This document shows positions 13 to 7,711 of a DNA stretch of 7,740 nucleotides, in pieces. A program made the position numbers and the translations under genes. Under the pieces are notes generated by a model. The model ran no database searches and was not told where the DNA came from. It saw nothing but the letters and a program-made list of their open reading frames with translations. Position 1 is the first letter of the stretch, and every line of letters starts with the position of its first letter. Source of the DNA: a virus (taxonomy: Duplodnaviria; Heunggongvirae; Uroviricota; Caudoviricetes); IMG/VR virus record IMGVR_UViG_2671180405_000016; one strand, given 5' to 3'.

Positions 13-1290
13 TTAAGCGCAGCTATTTAGTGAATTAAGTAAATTAGTCAGTGACCTTGTAAAGTCTGTTAAACCTTCCTGTGAACCATCGAACATTAAG
101 GCCAGATTATTATTCCATGAATTACTTAAGCGGCCTAACTGCGTCTGAGTAGAGTTAATAATCTTTTCCCATCCACCAGCTTTATCAATCATCCTTCCCA
201 TTTCAGCGGATACTTTAGGAAGAACATCTTTAGAAAGAATCTTACCGTCTTTCATGGCCTTGTCTAATTCTTCCGTAGTCATCCCAAGACTTCTGGCAAA
301 TAACTGAAAAGCACCTGCCATTCTGTCACCTAATTGACCGCGTAGCTCTTCAGCCTGAATCTTTCCTTTAGATGCCATCTGCTCGAAAGCTTTTAAAATC
401 CCGTTAATTTCATCGGTGCTTAGCCCCATTAATCTGGATGTACCAATCACATTAGAAAATAAGGATTCTTTCTGGTCTGCATTCATATCACCAGCACCAG
501 CGGAAAACTTAGCAAAACTGCTTAATGTTTCAATCTGGTCTACACCACTACTATCAGCAAGATTCTTAACAAATTCTGTAGCTCGTTTAGCACCTTCATC
601 ACCTAAAACGAATTGTGCCGCTCGTTGTGATGCTTCTTTTTTCAGACCAACCTCCATAATCCGCCTGTAAGCTTCTAAGGCTGTCTGAAAACTATAAATG
701 GCTGTACCTGCTTTGATTGCACTCGTAGCTAATACATCCAGACTATTTGAAGCATTTTCACTGTGATTATTTTTGCTGGTGGTCTTGTTAAACTTAGAAA
801 GTGTTTCACGAAGAGACTGATTTAACTTTGCTAACTCACGATTAAAAGTTTCGTTTCCAAGTGTCTTGGATTTACTGCTTAAGCTGTAATACTGGCTTTT
901 AAAATACTTCTCAAGCATAGGATTAAAGTCACGAAGCTTGCTCATATTCGCTGAGTAAGCTGCTGTGATTGCTCTGCTTCCGCTAATTCGTGGCTGTCTT
1001 GGTTGTCTAAGTGGCTTTAAAGTATCCTCAATTTCAGTTTTAATCTTAAACGCTCTAGTGTTTTTAAGACGCTGCTCAATCTTGGAAACAGTTTTATCGA
1101 CATTTCTTTCCATTAGTTTGAGAGAATCATTTAAAGGCGTAGGATTAACTCTAAACGACTTATTCAATCGCTTCTCAATTCGTGATGCTACCTGCATCGT
1201 TTGTTTCTCGGCTTTTTCCAAGCCTTTTAAAACTTTCTGAGAGTTAAAACTTAACTCAATCAGAAAATCATCAACTTTAAATTGTGCCAT
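13..1290 (-). CDS. phage tail tape-measure protein-like (lambda gpH-like), 425 aa, possibly C-terminally truncated
   Basis: Complete ORF with ATG at 1290-1288 and TAA at 15-13; upstream AGAGGTGA Shine-Dalgarno-like motif. The N-terminus (MAQFKVDDFLIELSF) has the pattern of the lambda H N-terminus (MAEPVGDLVVDLSL). The motif EELDKAMKDGKIL resembles lambda H EELNKALKDGKIL, and the C-terminal FDG...FTRSL resembles lambda H FDG...FTRSV. The protein ends where lambda H continues into its hydrophobic C-terminal region. Similarity is recalled from memory, not computed. Confidence 0.6.
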   Translation of the reverse strand: MAQFKVDDFLIELSFNSQKVLKGLEKAEKQTMQVASRIEKRLNKSFRVNPTPLNDSLKLMERNVDKTVSKIEQRLKNTRAFKIKTEIEDTLKPLRQPRQPRISGSRAITAAYSANMSKLRDFNPMLEKYFKSQYYSLSSKSKTLGNETFNRELAKLNQSLRETLSKFNKTTSKNNHSENASNSLDVLATSAIKAGTAIYSFQTALEAYRRIMEVGLKKEASQRAAQFVLGDEGAKRATEFVKNLADSSGVDQIETLSSFAKFSAGAGDMNADQKESLFSNVIGTSRLMGLSTDEINGILKAFEQMASKGKIQAEELRGQLGDRMAGAFQLFARSLGMTTEELDKAMKDGKILSKDVLPKVSAEMGRMIDKAGGWEKIINSTQTQLGRLSNSWNNNLALMFDGSQEGLTDFTRSLTNLLNSLNSCA

Positions 1291-2617: not shown

Positions 2618-2904
2618 AAAGCTGTAAAGGATTCAATAATGAATGAACAAAGACTTTTTGAGATAGCCTCTCAGACCAACCTGAAAGGCTAGGACGAAAA
2701 GCATTGCACCTTTCCAACTCAGAATATCCATCCATCGGATTATTGAAAGAAAAAATAAGAGAGAATTGCTCTCCCCCATATATACAATTATGTCATGCTC
2801 AAGGTTGTTTGTCAACAGCTTTTAACAGATTGGTAACATTTATACTTTAATAGATGCACCTGCAATCATACCAATCAATACAAAACAGATAATCACCAAT
2901 TCCA

Positions 2905-3228
2905 TTAATGCACCACCTTCGAATCCGTCACCAGAATATTATCGCTATACAAAATTGCTATAGCCGCCTTGAGATATTTTTCAGGGCTAACGCTGTATTT
3001 GTTCGTTTCTTCGATAATAAGACGCTTCATGTTTGAGTCGGTAACAGGAAACATAAAACGCGGTTCACCAGTTTCAATTTCCTGAATAAAGTCTTCAATT
3101 TCTTCTGAGTTTTCAGCCATTAGCTTTAGTAATTTATCAAGGTCAATTGATACACCGGAATCAGCGAAAGCCTGCACCATCATAGCAGTGTCGCTATCAA
3201 TGAAAATCTGTAATTCATATTCGTTCAT
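2905..3228 (-). CDS. hypothetical protein (107 aa from ATG at 3228; ORF track extends to a TTG at 3261)
   Basis: ATG at 3228-3226 preceded by AAGGAG with a 9-nt spacer; TAA stop at 2907-2905. The upstream TTG extension has no ribosome-binding site and would run into repeat copy 1. No recognisable family. Confidence 0.6.
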   Translation of the reverse strand: MNEYELQIFIDSDTAMMVQAFADSGVSIDLDKLLKLMAENSEEIEDFIQEIETGEPRFMFPVTDSNMKRLIIEETNKYSVSPEKYLKAAIAILYSDNILVTDSKVVH

Positions 3229-3248: not shown

Positions 3249-3375
3249 CAGACCTCCTCAATCGCTCTGTAACGAGCTAAACAGTCTTTTTCAGGGGTAG
3301 CCTGTACAGTGGTATTACCCACCCTAAAATAAGATAGTTTTTTGCGTTAGAATGCGATTGAGAGCGTCTGATAAG
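3249..3375 (+). repeat. copy 1 of an inverted-repeat-bounded element of about 127 bp (conserved terminal blocks, variable centre)
   Basis: The 5' block CAGACCTCCTCAATCGCTCTGTAACGAGCTAAACAG and 3' block TTTTTTGCGTTAGAATGCGATTGAGAGCGTCTGATAAG are each about 85-90% identical to the corresponding blocks of the copy at 4901-5004. The terminal 16-mers (3250-3265 and 3354-3369) are imperfect reverse complements, giving about 15 bp of pairing with single bulges. Confidence 0.6.
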
Positions 3376-3881: not shown

Positions 3882-4160
3882 TCAGACCTCCTGAGACAGT
3901 TTGTGAATTTTGATACTTAGTAACCTTGCTAAATCCAGTCCAAAAGCATTTAAGGATTTCAGACTATCAAGGTCATCTTGCTTAATCCTGATATGGTGTC
4001 TTGCAGCCTCTAAGCGACTATTAAGCAAATCCTGTTCGTTAATATCACGGTTAATTGCAAGCTTCATCACTGCTGAGTGTGGCAGACCTGTAATGTTTTT
4101 GATTCGGTTCAGTTCATCAAAGGCTGTCTTTGTAACTCTGGTTAATGTGTGTTTATTCAT
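3882..4160 (-). CDS. hypothetical protein (92 aa), possibly a small DNA-binding regulator
   Basis: ATG at 4160-4158 preceded by GAGGA with an 8-nt spacer and directly abutting the upstream gene's TAA (4163-4161); TGA stop at 3884-3882, 2 nt before the next ATG. The segment TAFDELNRIKNITGLPHSAVMKLAINR is helix-turn-helix-like by eye only. Confidence 0.6.
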   Translation of the reverse strand: MNKHTLTRVTKTAFDELNRIKNITGLPHSAVMKLAINRDINEQDLLNSRLEAARHHIRIKQDDLDSLKSLNAFGLDLARLLSIKIHKLSQEV

Positions 4161-4718: not shown

Positions 4719-4769
4719 TCATGTTCTGACTCTCATAAGATGTTATTATTCTGTTAACCTATATATACA

Positions 4770-4798
4770 ATATTAGCATTTTCAAAGACTAATGTCAA
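4770..4798 (-). promoter_or_regulatory. sigma70-type promoter for the minus-strand operon
   Basis: On the minus strand: -35 TTGACA (plus 4793-4798), 17-bp spacer, -10 TAATAT (plus 4770-4775). Confidence 0.5.
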
Positions 4799-4804
4799 GT
4801 ATTT

Positions 4805-4834
4805 TTAACATTTTCGTAACATCTGTGGTATAAT
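4805..4834 (+). promoter_or_regulatory. sigma70-type promoter with extended -10, rightward
   Basis: -35 TTAACA (4805-4810), 18-bp spacer, TGg-TATAAT extended -10 (TG at 4826-4827, TATAAT at 4829-4834). It sits back-to-back with the leftward promoter, with 6 bp between the two -35 hexamers. Confidence 0.55.
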
Positions 4835-4856
4835 GGGTTTATGGGGAGAGTAAAAT

Positions 4857-5189
4857 ATGAGGCGTGGCTATGTATTTGGTCGCATATTTTGCATTGCACA
4901 CAGACCTCTTCAATCGCCCTGTAACGAGTTAAACGACCTCTTCAGGTCAACTCATAAGGTCAGGTACTTTTTGTGTCAGAATGCGATTGAGAGCGTCTTA
5001 CAAGGAAAACTAATGGTAAATCTCCCTCCTGAGCTGGGGTCACCTGATGTATGGACTGGTGGAGGTATTGGGCTGATTGCAGGCCTGCTACTTCGCTACG
5101 TCCTCGTCAGAGTGCTTGTTGTCTTTAAACTGTTCGGTCGTACATGGACGCTTGACCTTAAGGATAACGACCACACAGACCCCCGTTAA
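4857..5189 (+). CDS. hypothetical protein; the C-terminal 58 aa (alternative start ATG at 5013) form a small predicted single-pass membrane protein
   Basis: ATG at 4857 preceded by GGGGAGAG; TAA at 5187-5189. An in-frame ATG at 5013 has its own AAGGA ribosome-binding site (6-nt spacer) and gives MVNLPPELGSPDVWTGGGIGLIAGLLLRYVLVRVLVVFKLFGRTWTLDLKDNDHTDPR, with a hydrophobic stretch GGGIGLIAGLLLRYVLVRVLVVF. The 5' part of the long ORF overlaps repeat copy 2, so which start is used is unresolved. Confidence 0.4.
   Translation: MRRGYVFGRIFCIAHRPLQSPCNELNDLFRSTHKVRYFLCQNAIESVLQGKLMVNLPPELGSPDVWTGGGIGLIAGLLLRYVLVRVLVVFKLFGRTWTLDLKDNDHTDPR
4901..5004 (+). repeat. copy 2 of the inverted-repeat-bounded element (about 104 bp; shorter variable centre)
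   Basis: 5' block CAGACCTCTTCAATCGCCCTGTAACGAGTTAAACGACCTCTTCAGG and 3' block TTTTTGTGTCAGAATGCGATTGAGAGCGTCTTACAAG. The terminal 16-mers (4902-4917 and 4983-4998) pair as 4 + 4 + 7 bp with two single-nucleotide bulges. Same orientation as copy 1. Confidence 0.6.
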
Positions 5190-5201
5190 ACTCCTTCAAA
5201 A

Positions 5202-5242
5202 CCCCTGCACGAGATGACAGATAGAAGTCTATGGTACAGGGG
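5202..5242 (+). terminator. weak terminator-like hairpin downstream of the small membrane-protein ORF
   Basis: CCCCTG (5202-5207) pairs with CAGGGG (5237-5242) around a 29-nt loop, followed by TGTCTTTAGCATTTTGTG. The loop is too long for a strong call. Confidence 0.2.
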
Positions 5243-5324
5243 TGTCTTTAGCATTTTGTGCTATCTATTAAAAAATAGCTTGACAGAACCGGAAAGCTGT
5301 ATCTATCAAGCATTCACCTCTCTG

Positions 5325-5514
5325 ACAGTAATTTCTAAAAGTTCTTATTTTTCAATAAGTTGTAATTAGCCATATATAGAGAACTGACAAGTCTCTTCAC
5401 AGACAACTCTGCAACCTTAACAGTAACTTCTAAAAATGCTTATTTTTCAACGAGTTGTAATCACCCAATATATAAGGCTGTCCAGTACCTTCACAGATAA
5501 CTTCAAGCCCTCTT
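5325..5514 (+). repeat. tandem direct repeat, two copies of a 95-bp unit
   Basis: Unit 1 starts at 5325 (ACAGTAATTTCTAAAAGTTCTTATTTTTCAATAAGTTGTAAT...) and unit 2 at 5420 (ACAGTAACTTCTAAAAATGCTTATTTTTCAACGAGTTGTAAT...). The first 42 nt match at 37 positions, and homology continues through ...CTTCACAGA(C/T)AACT... to the unit end. Confidence 0.55.
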
Positions 5515-6243
5515 AACCGCCCCACTAATCGGGAGAAGAGCGATAACCCCAGAGAGGGAAGCTCCTTTCTTAACCGACCTCTTAAACGACCTTTACAGAC
5601 CTTGTTCAAGGTAATCACAATAGTTTTTCTTCCCTCGGTTTCCTGTGTTCCTCGGCTGGCTATTGAGATTTGAAAGACCTCTGTAAGCGCTCTCTTAGCG
5701 AGAGAAAAATCATTCATAGTGACCCCAAGCGAAGCGCCCCTCTAAAAAAAGATTTTTTAGCTATTTTGTTTAAAAGCATATCAAACGATACATTTTATTG
5801 ATTTAGGTCAAAGACAAAAGCATTGACAAAATGGTAAGATTGTTCACATGACCTTACTTATTTAAGAGACTTTGAAACAGCCTGTTTAACAGGTCACTAC
5901 CTCTGGTCTTATCGTTCCCTTCTTTCTAGGTGGTTATCTGTTAAGAGTTTTTCAGTTTTTATTCTTAAGATAATTGTTAAGATGATACTCTCCCTTCGGG
6001 TTATATCGTATCTCTTCTCCCGTTAAATATCCCTTCACAGTCAGACTAAATAACACCTGTGTAGTTCTTGGTAGAATCTTTCAAGGTAACTTAGCTCTGA
6101 GTTTATGAAGTTGACCTATGAGATAGACTCTACCGAATCTGTTAGTCAATTGTTGCTTAGGTGCTGCTAAGTGAAGTGGCACACTGAATTTGGCCACCTG
6201 AACAGAGGTGATATGCTCACCTCAGAACAACACAGGTGCTCCA

Positions 6244-7412
<1,169 letters not shown>

Positions 7413-7420
7413 CCACTTCA

Positions 7421-7711
7421 GGCGACTTATCAGTGGAAAAACACAGAACGATCAGGATATATGCGCCCTGGCAAAAGAGTATGAGATCGCCATGCTGTTG
7501 GTGACTAAAGGTGCAGAAGGGGTGGTGGTCTGTTATCGAGGACAAGTTCACCATTTTGCTGGAATGTCTGTGAATTGTGTCGATAGCACGGGGGCGGGAG
7601 ATGCGTTCGTTGCCGGGTTACTCACAGGTCTGTCCTCTACGGGATTATCTACAGATGAGAGAGAAATGCGACGAATTATCGATCTCGCTCAACGTTGCGG
7701 AGCGCTTGCAG
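7421..7711 (+). pseudogene. internal fragment of a pfkB-family carbohydrate kinase gene (fructokinase-like), truncated at both ends by IS elements
   Basis: The frame encodes ...ICALAKEYEIAMLLVTKGAEGVVVCYRGQVHHFAGMSVNCVDSTGAGDAFVAGLLTGL...AQRCGALA. DSTGAGDAFVAGLL matches the C-terminal pfkB/ribokinase-family signature (D-[ST]-x-GAGD). The coding frame is cut by the IS911 right end at 7420/7421 and runs into the IS1 end at 7712; about two thirds of a typical 300-aa kinase is missing. The ORF-track entry 7342-7716 is a chimera of IS911 sequence, this fragment and IS1. Confidence 0.7.

Follow-up and report, generated by a model that had tools for sequence, protein, structure and literature searches.

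A probable promoter switch with an invariant operator-like motif beside a small membrane protein gene in a chromosomal island of Escherichia and Shigella

The window analysed in this study is the whole 7,740-nucleotide stretch of IMG/VR record IMGVR_UViG_2671180405_000016, and it turned out to be part of a chromosomal island of the Escherichia/Shigella type. Positions 4740-5260 appear to form the control region of this ~11-kb integrative island together with a stand-alone gene for a small membrane protein, an assignment that I consider fairly likely. Two sigma70-type promoters face away from each other there, and a short motif, TAACA-N6-TAACA, accompanies the island promoters in invariant form. 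The best reading of this arrangement, held with somewhat better than even confidence, is a factor-operated switch beside the small-membrane-protein gene. The main comparison set comprised 16 aligned relatives from E. coli, E. albertii and Citrobacter, and the small open reading frame (ORF) was checked in 17 loci. The set includes Citrobacter locus L003, with small-ORF DNA ~70% identical to that of the window.

The promoters and operator-like sites of the window are as follows (nt, nucleotides):
4770-4798, minus strand: leftward sigma70-type promoter; -35 TTGACA at 4798-4793, 17-nt spacer, -10 TAATAT at 4775-4770; 10/12 in the promoter scan
4805-4834, plus strand: rightward sigma70-type promoter; -35 TTAACA at 4805-4810, 18-nt spacer, TGgTATAAT at 4826-4834; 11/12 with TG
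4806-4821, plus strand: operator-like site O_R, TAACA-N6-TAACA; placed over the rightward -35 and spacer, at -44 to -59 of the leftward promoter
4741-4756, minus strand: operator-like site O_L, inverted, reading TGTTA-N6-TGTTA on the plus strand; about +7 to +22 of the predicted leftward transcript
2787-2838, minus strand: paralogous leftward promoter (TTGACA-17-CATAAT at 2815-2787) with a third operator-like site at 2823-2838

The preliminary description of this DNA had placed two near-consensus promoters back to back with 6 bp between their -35 hexamers. A promoter scan reproduced both at exactly these positions, and the -35 hexamers (4793-4798 and 4805-4810) do lie 6 bp apart; the rightward site has an extended -10, with TG at 4826-4827 and TATAAT as the -10 hexamer. 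When the window was shuffled 1000 times with dinucleotides preserved, three shuffles contained a back-to-back pair with both sites scoring at least 10/12. Both promoters were kept in 16/16 aligned relatives, including the Citrobacter locus. Across these 16 loci the left -35 varied in 0/6 alignment columns, the right -35 in 1/6, and the right TG and -10 together in 1/8; the remaining intergenic DNA varied in 29/52 columns, far above the promoter hexamers. The leftward -10 occurred as TAATAT, TAGTAT or TAATGT. Judging from the -10 positions, transcription is predicted to start at ~4763 leftward and at ~A4841 rightward, ~78 bp apart. These results confirm the predicted divergent pair of near-consensus sigma70 promoters as real and conserved.

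The two leftward promoters are paralogues: they have ATTGTATATAT(A/G)G after the -10 in common, and in both the operator-like site starts 8 bp upstream of the -35. The promoter at 4798-4770 is predicted to drive the main operon, which runs from the genes for a 185-amino-acid (aa) protein, a 92-aa protein and an HNH protein on to the tape-measure gene. The -10 of the second leftward promoter reads TGcCATAAT, and a terminator-like hairpin (2779-2755; GGGGGAGAG...CTCTCTT and a T-run) lies almost directly downstream (2755-2815, minus strand). The transcript of this promoter would start with TATGGGG(G)AGAG, as the rightward transcript does at 4839-4850.

Exact copies of TAACA-N6-TAACA occur three times in the window, against 0.04 expected, and all three are at promoters; the third, at 2823-2838, lies at -44 to -59 of the promoter at 2815-2787, the same placement as that of O_R. 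Locus L001 (33.6 kb), which carries an intact copy of the island, has the same three motifs and no others (0.08 expected), and 15/15 complete relatives have exactly three copies at equivalent positions. Among 16 sequences, none of the 20 half-site columns was variable, compared with 8 of the 12 spacer columns. This conservation pattern is the signature of a protein-binding site. Repeated operators that overlap or flank promoters are what a lambda-like switch would have, and the three motif copies are placed in this way. The architecture had been called a genetic switch in the preliminary description; the promoter pair on which that claim was built is real, and the operator-like motif, which had not been seen then, now lends the switch in-silico support.

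Downstream of the rightward promoter lies the small gene with its predicted signals:
5002-5006, plus strand: Shine-Dalgarno sequence AAGGA, 6 nt before the AUG; AGGA or AGGT is kept in all relatives
5013-5189, plus strand: gene for a 58-aa single-pass membrane protein, predicted from intactness in 17 loci, dN/dS, PGAP annotation, an AlphaFold2 (AF2) model and hydropathy
5201-5259, plus strand: terminator-like hairpin, CCCCTGCAC...GTACAGGGG then TGTCTTTAGCATTTTG; z -2.0 in the window and -3.8 in L001

An ORF of 58 aa with its own AAGGA at 5002-5006 and one hydrophobic segment had been proposed before; the coordinates agree, and both selection and hydropathy bear the proposal out. The ORF was intact in 17/17 loci and encoded 58 or, in many relatives, 62 aa, owing to an in-frame 12-nt indel. 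Its median pairwise dN/dS was 0.19, compared with 0.59 and 2.6 in the two shifted frames of the same alignment, and PGAP calls a 189-nt coding sequence at this position in many RefSeq genomes. The Citrobacter orthologue is still intact at ~70% nucleotide identity. By these comparative measures the predicted ORF is a genuine gene under purifying selection, and it alone among the ORFs runs opposite to the main operon. The terminator-like hairpin was found in most relatives and could not be aligned in L016 or in the Citrobacter locus (2/16).

Translation had previously been thought to start at either 4857, giving a 110-aa protein, or 5013, and the comparison of 16 relatives settled the matter for 5013. 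In the window and in L005 no stop codon interrupts the frame from 4857 onwards, which is the one point that speaks for the longer product. An ATG equivalent to 4857 was absent in 9/16 relatives, and among the 7/16 in which it was present it was out of frame or stopped in 5 and in frame and open to the ORF in 2/16; in addition, leader indels among the relatives were not multiples of three. The 110-aa version was rejected, since its start is not conserved, and I give it practically no chance.

Transmembrane prediction, one of the checks that had been suggested, gave a single transmembrane segment in the 58-62-aa protein, with a mean Kyte-Doolittle value of 2.29 in the best 19-aa window. The N-terminal flank contains no lysine or arginine and the C-terminal flank contains four to six; because the basic residues are confined to the C-terminal flank, the positive-inside rule predicts an N-out/C-in topology, with a periplasmic part of ~14-18 residues. 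Read directly, the sequence has a glycine-rich GGGIGLIAG stretch followed by a basic amphipathic segment. The AF2 model, one long helix from residue 11 to 54, adds little. A search of 5.8 billion sequences with the 58-aa protein returned 48 clusters, and all of those with a named source came from Escherichia; looking up the clusters added members from E. albertii and Shigella dysenteriae, including an annotated 58-aa Shigella member. A full profile search of 1.84 billion representatives yielded 17 matches in the same narrow Escherichia/Citrobacter family, and tblastn against the phage collection gave no match. The small protein is, on these searches, a predicted orphan family.

Relatives of the island at 80-95% identity were present in 412-532 of 5426 complete E. 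coli genomes (~8-10%), chromosomal in every case, and E. albertii and Citrobacter harbour them as well. The intact copy in locus L001 (E. coli A0 34/86, NZ_CP120567) is ~11 kb long and sits between tonB and yciI; further copies lie in yecE or adjoin ymdF. It opens with a large serine recombinase gene; genes for a 'baseplate' protein and then a tape-measure protein come next, followed by several small hypothetical genes, an HNH gene, ~2 kb without an annotated gene and, as the last gene, that of a small serine recombinase. The large serine recombinase at the island end is the kind of integrase expected of an integrative satellite.

A second feature expected of a satellite, a specific genetic link to a helper phage, was found in the tail genes, the motif and a short non-coding block, all of which point to Felix O1-like phages. 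The nearest relatives of the island tape-measure protein are those of Felix O1-like myoviruses (28-44% aa identity). In these phages the gene directly after the tape-measure gene encodes a product 67-71% identical to the 'baseplate' protein, so that the gene order matches as well. The pair (window 13-1290, minus strand; L001 10876-13880) is homologous to the phage pair of tape-measure protein and gp67. No further island protein had a homologue in phage REP5. A 42-44-nt non-coding block of the island (window ~5888-5930) matched an unannotated spot in 36 phage records, mostly at ~93% identity, and among the matches listed nearly all of these phages are of the Felix O1-like type. In one record the phage spot is 936 nt away from the first nucleotide, possibly near a genome end.

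In REP5 the matching spot falls within a 1.7-kb gene-free stretch. This genome contains 14 exact TAACA-N6-TAACA motifs, against 0.64 expected genome-wide, and 13 of the 14 lie inside the gene-free stretch, in a span of 760 bp, arranged as 11-bp-phased repeats; CHB7 has 14 motifs in the equivalent gene-free stretch and 0 in 12.8 kb of tail genes. On the island side, a ~1-kb non-coding block to the right of the small ORF (window 5231-6027) was kept in all islands in the same orientation, at 73% identity in Citrobacter, and it has further short strings in common with the phage gene-free region. This non-coding arm also contains a pair of ~95-bp units in tandem (5325-5408 and 5420-5502), 74-85% identical to each other and conserved in relatives. 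The island operators and the phage iteron array use the same word, which suggests that the reader of the switch is either a phage protein or an island protein whose targets include the phage region. With respect to Felix O1-like phages, the island may be a satellite or a defence element. The literature was searched for Felix O1-type satellites and tape-measure-carrying islands, and nothing relevant was found; the Tai paper (PMC11364771) deals with other proteins.

In the favoured reading, one motif-binding factor would shut off the rightward promoter by covering 4806-4821, and the same factor could activate both leftward promoters from -44 to -59. Bound at +7 to +22 of the leftward transcript, it could also auto-limit the leftward operon. 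Such a factor would come either from the phage, in which case infection would flip the switch, or from the island, where the 92-aa and 185-aa proteins are the candidates. The resting island would express the small N-out/C-in membrane protein, and the TAACA operator would shut this gene off. For the function of the protein, the reading ranked best is a membrane-acting or exclusion protein that would be expressed in the resting island and shut off via the operator, with a type I-like toxin and a translational gate ranked lower. A membrane-acting effector is the weakest step, taken as it is from a glycine-zipper-like helix and a basic amphipathic stretch; many small pore-forming toxins and holins combine a helix of this kind with a basic juxtamembrane segment. 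A more specific version is tentative and, in my estimate, unlikely: a phage iteron-binding protein would, on infection, hit the three island sites, turning the small membrane protein off and the tape-measure/tail-protein operons on. The small protein would then be a resting-state effector (exclusion, abortive infection or lysis timing), and the islands would be an undescribed family of ~11-kb elements that parasitise or counter virulent Felix O1-like myoviruses.

Several points weigh against the switch and the role given to the small protein. The whole model is built from sequence inference, and the proposed role of the protein was guessed from its composition; searches of Pfam, PHROGs, NCBIfam and PADLOC gave no match for it. 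Its architecture fits the toxin-like or holin-like label of the preliminary description, with no homology to a toxin, holin or defence family. A strong, apparently constitutive promoter before a membrane-damaging protein would need a brake, and none was found. The motif contains most of the rightward -35 TTAACA, so that its invariance there may partly reflect promoter function, although promoter function alone does not explain the invariance at the other two sites. The motif-binding factor could instead be a host protein. The 185-aa candidate had no match in Pfam, NCBIfam, PADLOC, PDB or the phage collection, and hit just two marginal PHROG families of unknown function (E ~0.005). The 92-aa candidate resembles ribbon-helix-helix proteins only weakly: hhalign gave a probability of 38% against CopG, which is weak support. 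It matched Pfam DndE at E = 0.0024-0.027, its AF2 model had a pLDDT of 49 (too poor to justify a fold search), and a PDB sequence search gave no match. As a weak suggestion, it could be a single-chain tandem ribbon-helix-helix binder and a candidate reader of TAACA. The same protein (3882-4160, minus strand) has two H-x-[LI]-R-[VI] strand-like motifs (KHTLTRV... and RHHIRIK...), each then followed by two helices.

The rightward transcript is predicted to begin with a long leader that, together with the start of the ORF and a related element in the leftward operon, contains the following elements:
4841-5012, plus strand: predicted 5' leader, 172 nt, its start predicted from the -10 position
4843-4850, plus strand: polypurine 5' end GGGGAGAG, which can pair with CU-rich codons 3-6
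4864-4883, plus strand: small core leader hairpin GUGGCUA...UGGUCGC, the loop of which takes a second optional insertion of ~50 nt in some relatives
4901-4998, plus strand: repeat copy 2, an imperfect palindrome that forms a long sense-RNA hairpin, an optional module
5021-5028, plus strand: CU-rich stretch within codons 3-6, with which the 5' polypurine tract can pair
3249-3375, plus strand: repeat copy 1, a palindromic module paralogous to copy 2 and located between genes of the leftward operon

Among relatives the leader measures 75-225 nt, depending on two modules that are present or absent. The second optional module of ~50 nt is itself a hairpin (TTATTCGATAGGGGTTGGTACAAGCCCAACTAACCGAATCAA), found in L007, L013 and L015 and partly deleted in others (columns 31-81 of alignment A3). 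Copy 2 is carried by the rightward transcript, as had been proposed, and is a true sense-strand hairpin within the predicted leader, with a fold z-score of ~-4.1. Three of the 15 pairs of its closing stem varied among 10 sequences (U-A to U-G to C-G; U-A to U-G; G-C to G-U); because the varying pairs stay canonical only on the plus strand, the hairpin appears to be maintained on the sense strand, in the rightward RNA.

It had been suggested that folding of copy 2 next to the ribosome-binding site (RBS) could gate translation of the small protein. The stem does adjoin the RBS, its last paired base being 4998, and the gap to AAGGA is 3 nt rather than the 4 nt given before; the upkeep of the closing stem through G-U intermediates and one full compensatory change also speaks for a function of the fold. 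The gate itself did not hold up and is quite improbable: 6/16 leaders (L003, L004, L013-L016) do without copy 2 and still have both RBS and ORF, minimum-free-energy (MFE) folds leave RBS and AUG single-stranded whether or not copy 2 is there, and no alternative pairing of the 3' arm of copy 2 with the RBS was seen. Copy 2 is better read as a self-folding palindromic insertion, probably tolerated by the leader because its ends pair with each other, than as a general translational gate. It may tune RNA processing or stability and is not required.

Copy 2 occurs once per genome and is confined to this island type. A dispersed miniature inverted-repeat transposable element was rejected on these grounds, and an intrinsic attenuator was rejected as no hairpin abuts the U-run of copy 2. 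Comparison of its flanks revealed no clear target-site duplication, and an Rfam search of the window and of the intact island (L001 9000-20700) at E <= 1 gave no match. Some intact islands have in their right non-coding arm an inverted copy 3 with ~70% identity to copy 1 (L001 18865-18997; also L015 6694-6806, L013 5942-6055, L009 6717-6829 and L002 166-297); its closing stem has a register different from that of copies 1 and 2, and the window lost it to the IS911 insertion. Copies 1, 2 and 3 occurred in all combinations among the loci. That copy 3 might serve with copy 1 or 2 to invert the DNA between them was considered and set aside, as no inverted arrangement was present among 15 loci.

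A type I toxin-antitoxin-like system was also weighed, in which the 58-aa protein would be a depolarising toxin whose mRNA is kept inert by fold-back of the 5' end onto codons 3-6, with an antitoxin RNA supplied from elsewhere. The peptide fits, being small (< ~60 aa) and hydrophobic with one transmembrane segment, and so does the length of the leader. In 16/16 mRNAs the first 20 nt pair best with +8 to +17 of the ORF (-11 to -16 kcal/mol); the 5' tract reads GGGGAGAG, GAGAGAGGGGGA or GAGAGAGGGAAA among relatives, both sides of the helix change by locus type (GAGGGGGA:UCUCCCUC vs GAGGGAA:UUCCCUC), and the pairing also appears in MFE folds. The pairing is a suggestive lead. Against it, the tracts are of low complexity and the CU tract is also constrained by Leu-Pro-Pro codons; RNAalifold on the 16 leaders recovered the small core hairpin and not the helix between the 5' end and codons 3-6; neither the RBS nor the AUG is paired; and the leader as a whole is no more stable than shuffles (z -1.35 in the window, ~0 to +0.8 for short leaders). 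The candidate antitoxin RNA is the leftward mRNA, which carries copy 1 antisense to copy 2. Copies 1 and 2 have blocks of 34 nt and 37 nt in common at 91% and 89% identity, so that the sense RNA of copy 2 would base-pair with the copy 1 part of the leftward mRNA. Yet copy 1 is alone in L013-L015, copy 2 is alone in L005, L006 and L009, and copy 1 is absent from many islands that retain the small gene; an obligatory antisense pairing of the two, as in P4 CI-like or P1 c4-like immunity, was rejected since they occur independently. A promoter scan of the minus strand over 4799-6200 gave no antisense promoter-like site. Taken together, I regard the type I interpretation as improbable.

The protein might alternatively act as a superinfection-exclusion or injection-blocking moron, produced by the resting island to block DNA entry or an early step of phages such as the Felix O1-like ones. 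A predicted promoter-gene-terminator layout, the position of the gene opposite the main operon, a predicted single-pass inner-membrane product and the tie of the island to one phage group all suit this proposal, which nevertheless shows no similarity to a known exclusion protein or defence family and would have to work with a periplasmic part of just ~14-18 residues. In this specific form it is possible, and on the unlikely side; as a role for the protein, exclusion is about equally plausible as a membrane-acting effector. Alternatively, the rightward transcript could chiefly activate the downstream ~1-kb non-coding region, an origin- or packaging-like region mimicking the phage gene-free region, with the ORF as a secondary matter. 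The constant orientation of this block in all islands, the sequence it has in common with the phage region and the weak U-tract of the terminator are in keeping with such a target, but the ORF is clearly under purifying selection and a hairpin separates it from the block in most loci, which makes this option very doubtful. A holin would have a transmembrane segment and a charged tail and be encoded beside an endolysin or spanin gene. The protein has the segment and the tail, but no lysis gene was annotated in the islands examined; no endolysin gene was annotated or detected in them, and no Pfam or PHROG holin match was obtained.

Seen beside known systems, the locus described here as a factor-operated switch most readily recalls lambda PR/PRM. 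In lambda, too, the promoters are back to back, with starts ~80 bp apart (~78 bp predicted here), and repeated operators lie between and beside them; a protein over one -35 sits just upstream of the other promoter. Unlike lambda, the rightward unit of the island encodes a 58-aa membrane protein and no repressor, the operators are 5-bp direct repeats with 11-bp phasing instead of 17-bp palindromes, and the candidate binder may come from an infecting phage. Like type I systems such as hok/sok, tisB/istR-1 and zorO/orzO, the island locus combines a long leader with a small hydrophobic peptide, and its 5' end may fold back onto the translation initiation region; it differs in that no antisense RNA gene was found, the RBS is unsequestered and there is no homology. 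Prophage morons such as that for the HK97 gp15 exclusion protein are likewise self-contained promoter-gene-terminator units on the opposite strand that encode a small inner-membrane protein, and the predicted promoter and terminator around a single gene in a mobile element conform to this pattern; there is no sequence similarity, and resting-state expression is a prediction for the island.

The repeat copies resemble ERIC/IRU and the Correia elements of Neisseria: each is an imperfect palindrome of 100-130 bp that lies in transcribed DNA, either intergenic or leader, and folds as a long hairpin, and otherwise identical sites may have it or lack it. They differ from these elements in their confinement to one island type, with one leader copy per genome, and in lacking a clear target-site duplication, sequence similarity and an Rfam match. 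As for the island as a whole, satellites of virulent phages (PLE of Vibrio cholerae with its phage ICP1, and the PICMIs; PMC10803314, PMC13595925) are also small islands tied to one virulent phage group through genes and DNA motifs, and they also have a large serine recombinase. Helper-triggered transcription is known for PLE. The present island has no proteins in common with PLE or PICMI, and it carries tape-measure and adjacent tail genes.

Searches of Pfam, PHROGs, NCBIfam and PADLOC with the neighbours of the small protein gave only a weak HNH match and tape-measure matches. An unannotated mini-ORF at 2840-2905 (minus strand) encodes a 21-aa hydrophobic peptide (MELVIICFVLIGMIAGASIKV), and its ATG overlaps the stop codon of a 107-aa gene (TAATG); at this site relatives have hydrophobic peptides of 21-25 aa in several divergent alleles, for example MGLIIAWTALGLFVGCWVGNTVNKN. 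A 5-codon upstream ORF, ATG AGA GTC AGA ACA TGA (4719-4745, minus strand), abuts the start of the 185-aa gene (TGAATG), and this arrangement is kept with a different sequence in relatives. At its right side the island of the window is truncated at 6171 by an IS911-type insertion. The IS911-type element, of the IS3 family and with orfA and orfB, occupies 6172-7420; a fragment of a pfkB-type sugar kinase gene follows at 7421-7710, and from 7711 the window runs into the end of an IS1. Such a load of insertion sequences is typical of Shigella.

As a unit of a mobile element, a promoter switch next to the gene for a small orphan membrane protein is well supported but conventional. The main added value lies in the short invariant operator that is common to the island promoters and the gene-free region of Felix O1-like phages, a virulent group used in phage typing and therapy. 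Island relatives carry the small protein in several hundred E. coli genomes as well as in E. albertii and Citrobacter. If a phage protein reads the operator, interactions of the PLE-ICP1 type would have a counterpart in E. coli, and the small protein would, if the model is true, be an accessible handle on the effects of the island on the host membrane or on phage entry.

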